A stretch of 11,196 bases of DNA, from the NCBI GenBank assembly GCA_022565875.1, contig JAIULY010000090.1:1-11196 (forward strand). The letters run 5' to 3'. Shown here piece by piece: positions 5,942 through 8,529 of this stretch. Below the pieces are notes generated by a model. The model saw nothing but the letters and a program-made list of their open reading frames with translations. It did not search any database and was not told the origin of the DNA. Origin of the DNA: Schleiferiaceae bacterium. Lineage in GTDB: Bacteria; Bacteroidota; Bacteroidia; Flavobacteriales; Schleiferiaceae. The position numbers were made by a program, and so were the translations under genes. Within the stretch, counting starts at the first letter, position 1. Each line of letters starts with the position of its first letter.

Positions 5942-6126
5942 TTGTTTTTTATTTTGTGTTTATGCGCAATAACCAGCCTTTCCAAAAAGGATGACTTCAA
6001 AAAAAGCCTATCAATACGAAAGGATTTTGCAGAAAAGGACTTTTTGGGACAAATCCGTTTTACGCAAACCTAATGGTATTGCAAAGCTAAGACATTGTGC
6101 TATTCCAACGATTGTGTTGCGTAAAT

Positions 6127-6292
6127 CATTCCGCGATTCTTTCCATACGGTTTGGGAGTTGGGAAGTTAGGGAGTTTGTTTCGGCGTTTGAGCTACTGCG
6201 TTTGGTTATTTTACATGTATTTAAGGATTGGTTTAAGGTTGAAAGTTTAAGGTTGAGCCCACTCTTTAAACATTAAACCTTAAACTTTAAAC
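6127..6292. repeat. R-family intergenic repeat, copy 1 (CATTCCGCG..TTCCATACGGTTTGGGAGTTGGGAAGTTAGGGAG..GTTTGAGCTACTGCGTTTGGTTA..), with an AT-rich 13-bp inverted-repeat tail
   Basis: About 90% identical to 7340-7472 over roughly 135 bp and to 8267-8345 over roughly 80 bp. The tail carries the stem AAAGTTTAAGGTT(6242-6254)/AACCTTAAACTTT(6275-6287). Confidence 0.8.
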
Positions 6293-6346
6293 CAAAATTA
6301 ATTGATAGATAGTATGTTAGGCGCGACGTGCTCCGATGACGTCGTT

Positions 6347-6505
6347 TCGATTATTCATTCCGTAATTTTTTTTTGGAACACGAAGTTGCAGGAAGTGCAC
6401 ACAAAGGTTCACGAAGGATAAACCGAATCAACGAATAGACGAATCGACAAAAGTTCCCCGTGCCACACAGTGCTCCCCGTGAGCCCCGCGGTGAAAAAAC
6501 TACCC
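6347..6505. repeat. Composite A/B repeat unit 1. The A arm is TTATTCATTCCG + T9 + four degenerate copies of GCACGGAG phased at about 10-11 bp (6347-6420). The B arm is TTCCCCGTGCCACACAGTGCTCCCCGTGAGCCCCGCGGTGAAAAAACTACC (6455-6505).
   Basis: The A arm is repeated at 6523-6585 and 8339-8410. The B arm is repeated at 8419-8470 at about 85% identity. The B arm's CCCCGTG/CTCCCCGTG triplet is roughly the reverse complement of the A arm's CACGGAG triplet, so A and B can form a long imperfect inverted repeat. Confidence 0.7.
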
Positions 6506-6522
6506 GGGCTCGGGAAACGAAT

Positions 6523-6585
6523 TGTTATTCATTGCACGATTTTTTTTTGGACCACGGAGTTGGACACGGAGTGGCACGGAGGAAT
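6523..6585. repeat. A-arm copy 2 (GTTATTCATTGCACG + T9 + GGACCACGGAGTT GGACACGGAGT GGCACGGAGG), without a B arm, directly next to the 3' end of the Uma2 gene
   Basis: Three near-perfect CACGGAG units at 11- and 10-nt spacing, with the same head motif as A1 and A3. Confidence 0.7.
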
Positions 6586-6622
6586 TTGTTGTAGGACTGT
6601 GCTGCGTGATGCTCTCCGCTTA

Positions 6623-7300
6623 TTATTCACTAAATATTTGGCGCAACGGAATTTTCATTTCAGGAAAAAGAGCGCCCGCCACTTCGGCGATACCTTCTTT
6701 TTCGCTAAACAAACCTAATGATTCATATTTTTCATCAATGAGGCTAAAGATTTCAATGCTTTTGTTGGCAGGGTCTGCTATCCAGTATTCTTTAACACCG
6801 TTTTCTTCGTACAGATTAAATTTTTCATTGTAATCTTTTTTAGCGGTGCTTTCTGAAAGCACCTCAACAATCAAATCTGGCGCACCAAGACAGCCTGCAT
6901 CATCTAACTTACTCGGGTCGCAAACCACACAAATATCAGGTTGGACAACAGTGTCAATTTCATCCCCGGGGTCTTTGTGCTTCTTTAGACGGACATCGAA
7001 AGGCGATTGATAAACTTCACACGGACTGTTTTTAAAAAATCCAAAAAACTCATAGAATAAATAGCCTTCAATTTTTTGGTGCACGCGTCTCGGTGCTGGA
7101 CTCATTTTGTACAACCACCCTTTGATCAGTTCCACACGCTCGTTAAGCCTCCAGGTAAGGTAATCGGTATAGGTGTACTGCCTTTTGATGTCTAAATCGT
7201 TGATGTCTGTAATGTACTTGGAATGCATACCAAAATATTTTACACAAAAATACATCAAATCAGCGGGAAAAACATGCGGAGTGAATCGCAGAATTTTCAT
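6623..7300 (-). CDS. Uma2 family (DUF820) PD-(D/E)xK endonuclease
   Basis: The protein MKILRFTPHV...YTYTDYLTW..ERVELIKGWLYKMSPAPRRVHQKI...EVYQSPFDVRL...QPDICVVCD..KLDD.GCLGAPDLIVEVLSESTAKKDYNEKFNLYEENGVKEYWIADP matches the conserved Uma2 blocks, including the D..EVLS and EYW..DP nuclease motifs. The start is set at ATG 7300, because the track's extended start at 7351 (MRGM...) lies inside repeat R2 and the same MRGM codons recur in repeat R3. Confidence 0.8.
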   Translation of the reverse strand: MKILRFTPHVFPADLMYFCVKYFGMHSKYITDINDLDIKRQYTYTDYLTWRLNERVELIKGWLYKMSPAPRRVHQKIEGYLFYEFFGFFKNSPCEVYQSPFDVRLKKHKDPGDEIDTVVQPDICVVCDPSKLDDAGCLGAPDLIVEVLSESTAKKDYNEKFNLYEENGVKEYWIADPANKSIEIFSLIDEKYESLGLFSEKEGIAEVAGALFPEMKIPLRQIFSE

Positions 7301-7339
7301 GGGTACAGTTATTTGATTTGTGACTGCAATTGGGGGTTT

Positions 7340-7472
7340 CATTCCGCGCATACTTCCATACGGTTTGGGGGTTGGGGAGTTAGGGAGTTTGTTTCGGCGT
7401 TTGAGCTACTGCGATTGGTTAGTCATTTTGCATGTATTTATGGATTGGTTTAAGGTTGAAAGTTTAAGGTTT
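7340..7472. repeat. R-family repeat, copy 2, immediately upstream of the Uma2 start codon
   Basis: Aligns with 6127-6255 at about 90% identity. It lacks the right arm of the R1 tail palindrome. Confidence 0.8.
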
Positions 7473-7575
7473 AACTGATGTCAATGCCTAAATAACGTTG
7501 ACTACTTAAAACTTGTGAGGGGAGCTAGCCCTGAAATTTGTGTAGCCAAACGGTACATATTTTTTCAACCCCATA

Positions 7576-7745
7576 CCTTGGCGTAATGATTCCGCACCTT
7601 TGGCGCTTTGTTCCATGAATTGGTCGCTCCCTAGGGCTTTACCCTAGGCTAATGATTATGCGCCTGTGGCGCTTTGTATTGTTTTCCTTTTCTACTCTTA
7701 GGGTTCAACTTAGACTAATGATTGTGCGTCTTAAATGGTGACTGA
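7576..7745. repeat. Three tandem units of about 60 bp sharing a (C)TAGGC/GGCG-TAATGATT-NYGCRCC-TNTGGCGCTTTGT core
   Basis: The units are GGCGTAATGATTCCGCACCTTTGGCGCTTTGTTCC (7576-7610), GGCTAATGATTATGCGCCTGTGGCGCTTTGTATTG (7637-7671) and GACTAATGATTGTGCGTCTTAAATGGTGAC (7712-7741). The first two are about 85% identical. Between units 1 and 2 is the palindrome CCCTAGGGCTTTACCCTAGG. Confidence 0.5.
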
Positions 7746-7751
7746 TGAATA

Positions 7752-7845
7752 AAGCACCAACGGTGCGATAAGCAGTAGCATAGCCTGAAGGGCTATGGAA
7801 AGATGCGTTTTTTTGCCATAAGCACCAACGGTGCGTAATCCTAGG
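7752..7845. repeat. Duplicated hairpin motif ATAAGCACCAACGGTGCG (7752-7769 and 7820-7837), with a 7-bp hairpin CATAGCC-TGAAG-GGCTATG followed by a T7 run between the copies
   Basis: GCACC-AAC-GGTGC forms a 5-bp stem with a 3-nt loop and is present twice. The intervening hairpin at 7779-7798 is followed by GGAAAGATGCG and TTTTTTT (7811-7817). Confidence 0.4.
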
Positions 7846-7989
7846 CGTTGTGTTCATTCCACGATTTTCGTGAGTTACACAGTGAAAAGTAAGAAGGCAT
7901 AGCTGTATACTGAAGAATTCAATGCGCATTACCTACGCCACAATTCAGATTTTAGGGCTAACGCCCTTTTAAAACTTTTCCACTACCAC

Positions 7990-8260
7990 ACCCCCTCTAA
8001 ACCAAGGCCGGCGAAGCCCGCCCTGTCTAAACCCAAACAGCAGGCGACCTAGCCGGCGGAGCTAAACCCAAGCGCGTCAGGGCGTCTAAACCAATCGGGA
8101 AACGACGCATACCTAAAAAACACAATCCCGCTCCCATCACCCCCAAACACACTCCATAAACTGTGAGCCGCCAGGCGAACGCAATAAACTGCGAGCAGGG
8201 GCACAGCCCGCGCAGCGATAAACCCAAGCCGAAGGCATAAACCCCTCGGGAAAACGCATC
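7990..8260. repeat. GC-rich, strand-skewed island (C/A-rich on the + strand) with at least eight quasi-periodic YTAAACC(C) motifs separated by GC-rich spacers of about 12-35 nt carrying small hairpins
   Basis: CTAAACC(C) occurs at 7997, 8027, 8062 and 8086. Related CCTAAAAAAC occurs at 8112, CATAAACT at 8155, AATAAACT at 8183, GATAAACCC at 8218 and CATAAACCC at 8236. Spacers contain GGCGAAGCCCGCC, GCCGAAGGC, CCTCGGGAAAACG and GGGGCACAGCCCGCG. The composition is markedly more GC-rich than the flanking DNA. The only ORF here (8027-8278, minus strand) is a low-complexity artefact. Confidence 0.5.
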
Positions 8261-8266
8261 GTTATT

Positions 8267-8345
8267 CATTCCGCGCATATTTCCATACGGTTTGGGAGTT
8301 TGGAAGTTAGGCGTGGCGTTTTGAGCTACTGCGTTTGGTTATTCA
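8267..8345. repeat. R-family repeat, copy 3 (shortened), running directly into A-arm copy 3
   Basis: CATTCCGCGCATATTTCCATACGGTTTGGGAGTTTGGAAGTTAGGCG..TTTTGAGCTACTGCGTTTGGTTATTCATTT aligns with R1 and R2. A further R-core fragment GGTTTGGGGGTTGGGCGCG lies at 8476-8494. Confidence 0.7.
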
Positions 8346-8470
8346 TTTCACACGCTCTTTTTGGTTGCACAGAGCGCACGGAGAAGGCACGGAGTGACAC
8401 TGAGAATTGAAAACACATATTCCCCGCGCCACACAGTGATCCCCGTGAACGCCGTGGTGAAAAAACTACC
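8339..8470. repeat. Composite A/B repeat unit 3 (A arm 8339-8410: GGTTATTCATTTCACACG..T5..GCACAGAGC GCACGGAGAAG GCACGGAGT GACACTGAG; B arm 8419-8470)
   Basis: Same architecture and sequence family as 6347-6505. It lies just downstream of the stop codon of the T9SS-cargo gene. Confidence 0.7.
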
Positions 8471-8529
8471 GGAGTGGTTTGGGGGTTGGGCGCGACGTTT
8501 TAATAAGCAGAACAATAGCAACATCAAAA

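Follow-up and report, generated by a model that had tools for sequence, protein, structure and literature searches.

What produced the 2.6-kb stretch that separates pepO from a gene for a protein sorted by the type IX secretion system (T9SS) in a Schleiferiaceae bacterium? The stretch occupies positions 5942-8529 of an 11,196-nucleotide sequence (contig JAIULY010000090.1, assembly GCA_022565875.1), which was analyzed as a whole and is called the window; it is a single 11-kb contig of a metagenome-assembled genome (MAG), and the internal order of the repeats is taken from this one assembly. Within 5942-8529, a nuclease gene of the Uma2 family is the only real gene, and the remaining ~2 kb is non-coding repeat DNA. 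The spacer is probably a hot spot of non-autonomous palindromic repeats similar to repetitive extragenic palindromic (REP) sequences, bacterial interspersed mosaic elements (BIMEs), neisserial intergenic mosaic elements (NIMEs) and MITEs (miniature inverted-repeat transposable elements), which would have been shuffled at a shared head motif, and Uma2 would be cargo brought in from outside. Mosaics of palindromic repeats are familiar from a few model bacteria but have been poorly charted in Bacteroidota.

Modular anatomy of the spacer

Seven matches to the head motif TTATTCATTCCGCG (up to three mismatches) lie on the plus strand of the spacer, at 6122, 6351, 6525, 7335, 7850, 8262 and 8339; one additional match lies outside it, and 1.34 are expected in the whole window. 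A preliminary description of this DNA had recognized the recurrence of this motif but placed the copies wrongly by a few bases. The head stands before the R and A bodies and, in a weaker form, before the B and TAATGATT bodies, so that the region reads as (head + body)n on the plus strand. The head-to-tail chaining proposed earlier keeps its shared head but is better read as module shuffling at the head than as a simple tandem. Nearly all modules consist of a short word in tandem: GTTNGGGA with an 8-nt period in R, GGTTTAA with a 7-nt period in B, CACNRAG with a period of ~10 nt in A, ACGAATNN in the A1 loop, and YTAAACC with GC-rich filler in a GC-rich island. In the A and B modules, the run of words faces an inverted run, which would allow long imperfect hairpins; the inverted units of the earlier description are better seen as arrays of 7-nt words building such hairpins. 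The heptamer-word architecture and the link to GxxExxY cassettes described below were absent from that description. When copies were sought across the whole window, no family had a copy outside 5942-8529, and the repeat-mosaic non-coding DNA reported earlier is borne out, with its families confirmed and all their copies inside the spacer.

Unless stated otherwise, the modules are given on the plus strand. Three R units were found (6120-6254; 7333-7471, 90% identical over 133 nt; 8260-8348, 83%), and the R core 20-mer occurs three times compared with zero occurrences in 200 shuffles. The R1 unit (6120-6210) is composed of a head at 6122-6135, 8-nt GTTNGGGA words, GGCG...GAGCTACTGCG and a second head-like TTGGTTATT. 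It runs into the B1 hairpin (6202-6295), in which GGTTTAA-type 7-nt words at 6228-6254 face TTAAACC words at 6266-6295 with 85% complementarity; B1 has a 30-nt match at 90% in an unrelated Bacteroidetes locus (L026, 4872-4901). Next, at 6302-6350, stands a pre-head module, which contains GTTAGGCGCGACGT together with a small hairpin, CGACGT...ACGTCG. The same motif recurs at 8306 and 8485, and a similar one precedes the head in another contig, L071.

A complete A unit comprises a head, a T-run, GG, three to four heptamers, a loop, three to four inverted heptamers, GTG and an A-run. The window contains two complete ORF-less stem-loop elements of this kind (ORF, open reading frame), A1 (6351-6504) and A3 (8339-8470), and a single arm, A2 (6525-6587). 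In A1, the head (6351-6364) is followed by T9 (6366-6374), an arm of CACGAAG-type heptamers (6375-6417), the ACGAATNN words, an inverted arm (6454-6493) and an A-run with CTACC (6494-6504). A2 contains a head (6525-6538), T9 (6540-6548) and three CACGGAG heptamers and abuts the Uma2 stop codon; it pairs with the inverted arm of A1 (approximately -59 kcal/mol; z = -3.1 for the A1 plus A2 fold). In A3, the head is followed by T5 (8358-8362), four CACNGAG heptamers (8363-8408), an inverted arm (8420-8459) and an A-run with CTACC (8460-8470), and the inverted arms of A1 (6454-6504) and A3 (8420-8470) are 90% identical. The minus-strand fold of A3 reaches -49.7 kcal/mol (z = -3.5), and its tail GTGGTGAAAAAA matches the tail behind a GxxExxY gene in locus L196. 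The spacer holds 11 CACNRAG words, ten of them in the three A arms (6379, 6400, 6410, 6553, 6565, 6575, 8368, 8377, 8388 and 8398), compared with five across the remaining window.

On the far side of the Uma2 segment, the R2 unit with a B2 arm (7333-7475) is a direct repeat of R1/B1, and the two copies flank the whole A1-A2-Uma2 segment. A hairpin module with GGGGAGCTAGCCC follows at 7514-7546 (second copy on the other strand at 7947-7975), 82-86% identical to positions 1970-2002 and 2019-2047 of locus L192. Three tandem 66-nt TAATGATT units occupy 7560-7757, with the 66-nt period extending over 7569-7740; the intact middle unit is composed of a CCTAGGG/CCCTAGG hairpin, TAATGATT, a GCGCC/GGCGC hairpin and a T-rich tail. 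Two exact AAGCACCAACGGTGCG hairpins (7752 and 7820) flank a CATAGCC/GGCTATG hairpin within 7751-7835, to which no strand was assigned (minus-strand fold z = -3.2); this group is 84% identical to L192 2637-2684, with a second L192 copy at 4039. The GC-rich YTAAACC island noted in the preliminary description is real and forms one unit of ~262 nt (7996-8257) with eight YTAAACC motifs, a GC content of 0.57 and an AT skew of +0.41. Last come R3 (8260-8348), a short R unit with the A3 head as its 3' end, then A3 itself and the stub of another unit (GGTTTGGGGGTTGGGCGCGACGT, 8476-8498), which abuts the stop codon of the T9SS cargo gene.

Uma2 lies on the minus strand at 6623-7228 and encodes a 201-residue PD-(D/E)XK nuclease that matches Pfam PF05685 (E = 8.6e-34; 116.9 bits against a cut-off of 27) and is 100% identical to the NCBI annotation. 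The mechanically called ORF reaches 7351 (242 aa); NCBI and all close homologs start at 7228. The single coding gene of the preliminary description is thus confirmed, but at 606 bp rather than 678 bp. None of the nine small ORFs of the spacer has a Pfam match. In the longest (8027-8278, minus strand), comparison with the copy in contig L204 gave mismatches of 8/8/8 across codon positions and five frame-breaking indels, and its matches in a protein library are translated tandem DNA repeats. Small proteins were rejected because of the missing Pfam matches and the absence of a coding signature in this ORF, so that homologous small proteins, which the preliminary description had named as evidence against its own reading, were not found. 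Four entries of a public protein library (P0243, P0244, P0247 and P0248; 389-730 aa), each composed of 6-11 near-identical repeats, look like translated non-coding tandem DNA arrays rather than real proteins.

Polymorphism between strains and copies at other loci

The spacer differs between strains. L001, a metagenome contig from the European Nucleotide Archive (ENA), carries a pepO with 97% amino acid and 93% nucleotide identity to that of the window and is collinear with window positions 3803-6142. Divergence begins immediately after TCATTCCGCGATTCTTT, within the R1 head; past this breakpoint, the window continues into the R1 body, and L001 continues into T7 and GGAACACGGAG, that is, an A arm. 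In L001, the arm is followed by another head-like motif, by unrelated, GC-rich DNA of ~280 nt and by the beginning of the GC island; positions 1-50 of L001 match window 8043-7994 at 88%, and the contig ends there. In total, ~1.85 kb of the window is replaced by ~330 nt in this strain, and Uma2 is absent from the site.

Members of the same families stand beside other genes. L071 (JAIUMW010000289.1) is a 3.9-kb contig binned in an Oceanicaulis MAG that ends inside a repeat and in which an R3-like tail, followed by a head, T8 and an A arm, stands next to an unrelated gene for a 1170-residue secreted protein; its positions 3839-3882 are 95% identical to window A1 (6367-6410) over 44 nt. This contig is probably mis-binned and from a relative of the window organism. 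The large secreted-protein gene looks Bacteroidota-like by eye. The 532-nt contig L204, which belongs to the ENA project that also yielded L001, holds 2.4 tandem copies of window 7996-8257 at 85-94% identity, which identifies the GC island as one repeat unit.

Another of these loci, L192, comes from the same Joint Genome Institute (JGI) sample as a relative whose pepO is 63% identical to that of the window. Its Uma2 gene (82% amino acid identity) lies between PadR/PspC genes and aconitase and is embedded in ~2.1 kb of non-coding DNA with A-type, TAATGATT-type and AAGC-hairpin repeats. Upstream of the gene, positions 1972-2640 contain 6.5 tandem units of ~100-106 nt with 88-97% mutual identity, each composed of a GGGGCGTTAGCCC hairpin, T7 and GGAGCACTAAG-TTTCACGGAG-TTTGCCACGAAG-GTTCATGAAG and 77-82% identical to window A1; this segment is a minisatellite of A-type arms and the GGGGCGTTAGCCC hairpin. 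Direct repeats of ~125 nt homologous to the window TAATGATT units stand on either side of the L192 Uma2 gene, and its AAGCGCCAACGGTG hairpins resemble the window hairpins at 7752 and 7820. The preliminary suggestion of MITE-like elements or a mobile-element landing zone is supported in substance by the strain variation and by the families in L071, L192 and L204, which also exclude repeats unique to this locus; the word "decayed" is not supported, the copies being 83-94% identical.

A further contig, L094 from a Cryomorphaceae MAG, shows a series of word stutters at positions 1-360 (minus strand), downstream of a queA-like gene recognized by eye from its translation: GTACTGAG four times, GCGGGGAA and GGTTTATGAA twice each, GAATTT repeats and CACGAAG four times, several of them after a T-run and GG. 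Given this series of differing stutters, word-array repeats seem to characterize this group in general.

Stem-loop cassettes around GxxExxY nuclease genes

The A-unit start TTTTTTTGGAMCACGRAG was scanned against 185,579 species-representative genomes. The scan returned 84 loci, compared with ~70 expected by chance as estimated from pattern and database sizes. At least 13 of the 84 (~20 by eye) carry extra heptamers and inverted heptamers beside the match. These array-type loci are mainly from Bacteroidota, including Segetibacter (three loci), Saprospiraceae (two loci), Chitinophagaceae, Algoriphagus, Prevotella and Cryomorphaceae, and occur also in Verrucomicrobiota and Desulfobacterales. Four of the 13 array loci lie at contig ends, compared with one of the 71 others.

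Only two genes of the GxxExxY family (PDDEXK_3, TIGR04256) were present in 616 kb of scanned loci, and both touch arrays. In L026 (2330-3290), the gene is located between the two arms of one element, and the element immediately upstream is a copy whose arms are nearly identical but which holds no ORF. Independent GxxExxY genes were taken from two sources, plasmid records and the IMG/VR collection of metagenome contigs classified as viral. Including L026, bracketing by inverted heptamer arrays was found at seven loci (L026, L195, L196, L197, L198, L201 and L202; gene coordinates 1440-1915 in L195, 1405-1890 in L196 and 365-825 in L197). The arms read CACAGAG...CTCTGTG in Bernardetia and CACAGAGGACGCAGAGGACACGGAG ... 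CTCTGTGACCTCTGTGTCCTCTGTGGTGAAAAAA in Bacteroides finegoldii; in Sphingomonas, the gene lies between fabD and fabG with the arms T6-CACGCGAAGGCGCGAGGACGCGAAG ... CGTCTTCGCGGCTTCGCGTGAA, and in Gemmatirosa an ORF-less hairpin adjoins the gene. The two IMG/VR contigs, L201 and L202, show the same arm pattern, and a distant homolog, L203, is without arms. The arm word varies with lineage (CACAGAG, CACGGAG, GCGAAG, CGCAGAG), and the cassettes occupy very short gaps between housekeeping genes, as in the fabD/fabG case.

Bracketing was scored by an alignment in which the sequence upstream of each gene was matched to the reverse complement of the sequence downstream of it, and 391 genes served as controls. 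Four of the eight GxxExxY genes, the eight loci on which the generalization rests, scored 20-28, compared with a control 99th percentile of 16.1. Duplex free energy was dropped as a measure in favor of this alignment score because control genes averaged -30 kcal/mol, which made it non-discriminating.

The window A units share the structural features of this stem-loop cassette, a class defined in the present analysis rather than a curated family: inverted CRCNRAG heptamer arrays with an 8-11-nt period and with the T-run and A-run outermost. A profile search of all window ORFs found no GxxExxY gene, so the sequence identifies the window A units as putative empty, ORF-less copies of a widespread GxxExxY cassette. 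The literature searched on GxxExxY, PDDEXK_3, Uma2 and Bacteroidetes MITEs yielded nothing describing these arrays. A 2012 survey of PD-(D/E)XK nucleases listed PDDEXK_3 as a family without known function and treated Uma2, in which it saw signs of mobility, as no more than a predicted endonuclease (PMC3424549). The association of heptamer-array hairpins with enclosed GxxExxY genes in several phyla, together with empty copies, may be a new link, and through it GxxExxY and perhaps Uma2, two large nuclease families without an assigned role, would gain a testable function. The repeats also disrupt metagenome assemblies, as several related contigs end within them, and mark sites of accessory-gene turnover.

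Taken together, the account that we favor is that the spacer collected short, hairpin-forming non-coding modules and one horizontally acquired Uma2 gene. Each module would be a run of tandem 7-10-nt words, usually facing an inverted run, so that the DNA or its transcript could form a long imperfect hairpin. Modules would be swapped at the common head TTATTCATTCCGCG, through recombination between copies or through insertion, and such exchange would give the chained look and the strain differences. The A modules would be the ORF-less form of the cassette that encloses a GxxExxY gene between its arms, and Uma2 a separate cargo gene between two direct copies of the R module. We infer that each module is a non-autonomous element that moves or recombines, perhaps moved by a nuclease encoded elsewhere in the genome. 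The spacing of the tandem words at about one helical turn suggests cooperative protein binding along each arm; to the same degree, the near-perfect pairing of the arms across an ORF points to a stem, formed either in RNA or in single-stranded DNA.

Several observations weigh against this account. The window encodes no GxxExxY nuclease, as mentioned above, and neither target-site duplications nor a transposase are visible in it. The repeat copies were counted in a single 11-kb MAG contig rather than genome-wide, and the R1...Uma2...R2 arrangement comes from one short-read assembly. The R core 20-mer occurs in none of the species-representative genomes and has one chance match in JGI metagenomes, so that the R family may be restricted to this lineage. 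Folding energies favor neither strand consistently, which makes DNA-level and RNA-level roles inseparable.

A broader version of the account can be put forward only tentatively. Heptamer-array stem-loops and GxxExxY genes might together constitute a widespread and undescribed class of selfish cassettes, whose full copy would be a PD-(D/E)XK nuclease gene between arms of putative tandem binding words, able to sit inside operons. The nuclease would spread ORF-less copies in trans, as REP-associated tyrosine transposases (RAYTs) spread REPINs, and its non-autonomous members would be the A modules of the window and, by analogy, those of the B, R and island types, which use other words. If so, Uma2 and similar small nuclease genes would find landing pads in these repeat islands.

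Alternative explanations, neighboring genes and known systems

Of the alternatives, the one that survives best, although we consider it unlikely, is that the modules are functional RNA or regulatory elements, with hairpins that serve as terminators, insulators or RNase III stems and that are kept by selection rather than by mobility. Such stems would let inserted genes sit among host genes undisturbed, as in 23S rRNA intervening sequences. An RNA-level role is supported by the TAATGATT unit, whose two hairpins survive through three compensatory pairs at genus-level distance, in comparison with L192, and whose second hairpin is followed by a T-run. On its gene-sense strand, A3 folds far better than shuffles, as its z-score given above indicates. 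The GxxExxY cassettes occur within operons with almost perfectly pairing arms, as at fabD/fabG in Sphingomonas, and non-coding modules are ~80% identical between organisms whose pepO proteins are only 63% identical. However, no Rfam family matches these repeats: the sole match in the region is a weak one to Acido-Lenti-1, which reaches 26 bits at 7630-7673 where the gathering score is 37, and searches of L192, L035, L094, L085, L071, L001 and L028 gave no match in them. Terminator-like and promoter-like sites are not enriched (five found against 3.5 and 4.6 expected), the orientation to neighboring genes varies among loci, the asymmetry between sense and antisense folding is not consistent, and the order of T-run, stem and A-run is the reverse of a bidirectional terminator. 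The cluster of structured non-coding RNAs considered in the preliminary description is accordingly not supported as stated, although the TAATGATT unit does keep its two hairpins. An RNA role of this kind would be compatible with the hot-spot account rather than exclusive of it.

A purely local history, in which the repeats arose at one locus through segmental duplication and through unequal crossing-over, with the Uma2 insertion perhaps as the trigger, and form no dispersed family, appears improbable. Every window copy does lie within 2.6 kb, the R core was absent from other collections apart from the chance match, and local amplification does occur, as in the three TAATGATT units, the L204 island array and the 6.5 L192 units. 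Against it stand the A units and R3 tail beside a different gene in L071, the A-type, TAATGATT and AAGC modules at another locus in L192, the non-collinear module order of the left and right blocks, and an A architecture that spans phyla.

The Uma2 gene itself shows signs of a history separate from that of the modules. Its relatives are 82-88% identical in amino acid sequence, whereas the next-best pepO beyond the close strain is only 63% identical, which points to horizontal movement of Uma2. The nucleotide alignments of L192 and L193 to the window gene (82% identity) begin at the stop codon, continue for 95 nt upstream beyond the ATG and end 13 nt before the R2 head. This putative leader and promoter region (7229-7322, minus strand) contains TATTTTTG, which fits TAnnTTTG, the -7 box of Bacteroidota; on the basis of the DNA conservation and this motif, the 95 nt are probably promoter and leader.

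Direct repeats were examined by a flank-to-flank alignment score with 299 control genes, for which the 95th and 99th percentiles were 24 and 55. The three closest Uma2 loci scored 104 (window), 91 (L192) and 27 (L010), with a different repeat family at each. In L010, from another lineage, the Uma2 gene (82% amino acid identity) is flanked at 5884-6000 and 6787-6898 by the direct repeat CAAAACTGTCAACTTTTTTT(A)GGACGAGA, again a T-run followed by GGAC; a tRNA-like sequence, recognized by eye only, lies ~330 nt downstream. The distant Uma2 loci L194, L199 and L200 have no flanking direct repeats. The simplest reading is that Uma2 landed in, or recombined into, pre-existing repeat arrays. That Uma2 is instead an active partner that recognizes and moves its flanking repeats, as a RAYT does with REPINs, or homes into them, is the least probable alternative and very doubtful: the direct repeats at the three closest loci, the joint occurrence of Uma2, TAATGATT and AAGC modules in two genomic contexts in the same relative orientation, and a conservation far above that of the housekeeping neighbor, implying horizontal spread, would all fit it, but 616 kb around array-type loci contained no Uma2 gene, Uma2 genes show no bracketing by inverted arrays, with scores of 8-12 that equal the control mean, the distant loci are without direct repeats, and the repeat family differs case by case.

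Other candidates were tried and rejected. A diversity-generating retroelement fails on two counts: the differences between R1 and R2 lack adenine specificity, and no reverse transcriptase is encoded in the window. For a sponge of a CsrA-type protein, CACGGAG contains GGA, but CACGAAG, CACAAAG and CACTGAG do not. A sigma-54 promoter at TGGCACGGAGG lacks the -12 element, sigma-70 promoters and intrinsic terminators as the source of the repeats are not enriched, and viral scans for phage attachment sites yielded chance matches only.

As for the remainder of the window, on the plus strand it encodes RtcB (764-2173), a tRNA-Asn (2406-2480) and a Band 7 protein (2625-3818); on the minus strand, it encodes the M13 peptidase PepO (3917-5941, by Pfam), the T9SS-sorted protein (8530-10098, with a Pfam T9SS C-terminal sorting domain) and an ORF without assignment (10127-11146). 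A homolog search with the T9SS cargo protein returned only itself and one partial relative. Directly downstream of rtcB, there are two sub-threshold Rfam matches to YrlA, a Y RNA-like family with a tRNA-like domain, one of 37.5 bits at 2308-2370 (E = 2e-5; the gathering score is 69) and another at 2377-2431 that overlaps the start of the tRNA-Asn gene. They resemble the rtcB-linked Y RNA loci of enterobacteria; the window is without an Rsr/Ro gene.

Among known systems, two can be set aside. Integron cassettes do not fit, as GTTAGGC at 6316 and 8306 has no partner inverse core and no integrase was found by Pfam in the six main window ORFs. A CRISPR array does not fit either, as the head spacings are irregular (229, 174, 810, 515, 412 and 77 nt) and the would-be spacers are themselves repeated. 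There is a resemblance to BOX elements of Streptococcus pneumoniae and to MITEs such as Correia. A1, A3 and B1 have inverted arms and, like MITEs with their terminal inverted repeats, are small (70-155 nt) and ORF-less; the shared properties extend to being modular and multicopy and to breaking assemblies. In contrast to BOX and Correia, neither a target-site duplication nor a parent insertion sequence was identified here. Target-site duplications are unreadable because the element ends are T-runs and A-runs, and what the full-length relatives encode is a GxxExxY nuclease, not any known transposase; the window itself contains no transposase. The ORF-bearing 23S rRNA intervening sequences likewise enclose a small ORF between two arms pairing into a long stem in transcribed DNA, a stem that RNase III cleaves, although the elements here are intergenic and the window copies are ORF-less.

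REP sequences and BIMEs are also short palindromic extragenic repeats combined into mosaics, and the GxxExxY gene between inverted repeat copies, with ORF-less copies elsewhere, parallels the RAYT gene flanked by REPs. However, the arms here are 30-45 nt of periodic heptamers whereas a REP is a simple palindrome of 20-40 nt, the units carry no GTAG/CGTC tag, and no Y1 transposase was found by Pfam in the six main window ORFs. The associated protein is a PD-(D/E)XK nuclease rather than an HUH Y1 transposase like RAYT, and mobilization by it is only proposed. In Neisseria, NIMEs consist of RS units separated by dRS3 repeats and flank "minimal mobile element" sites. The spacer similarly combines arrays of 50-150-nt units joined by a short shared motif, at an intergenic site with strain-specific cargo genes between conserved flanking genes. 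Differing from NIMEs, the shared motif TTATTCATTCCGCG is not an inverted repeat as dRS3 is, the bodies are tandem 7-10-nt words, and neither an IS110-type recombinase nor a filamentous prophage was seen to be linked to them. The grammar of the spacer is closest to that of neisserial NIMEs and Escherichia coli BIMEs, the nuclease flanked by its own repeats closest to the REPIN-RAYT system, and the ORF enclosed in a stem closest to the ORF-bearing rRNA intervening sequences.

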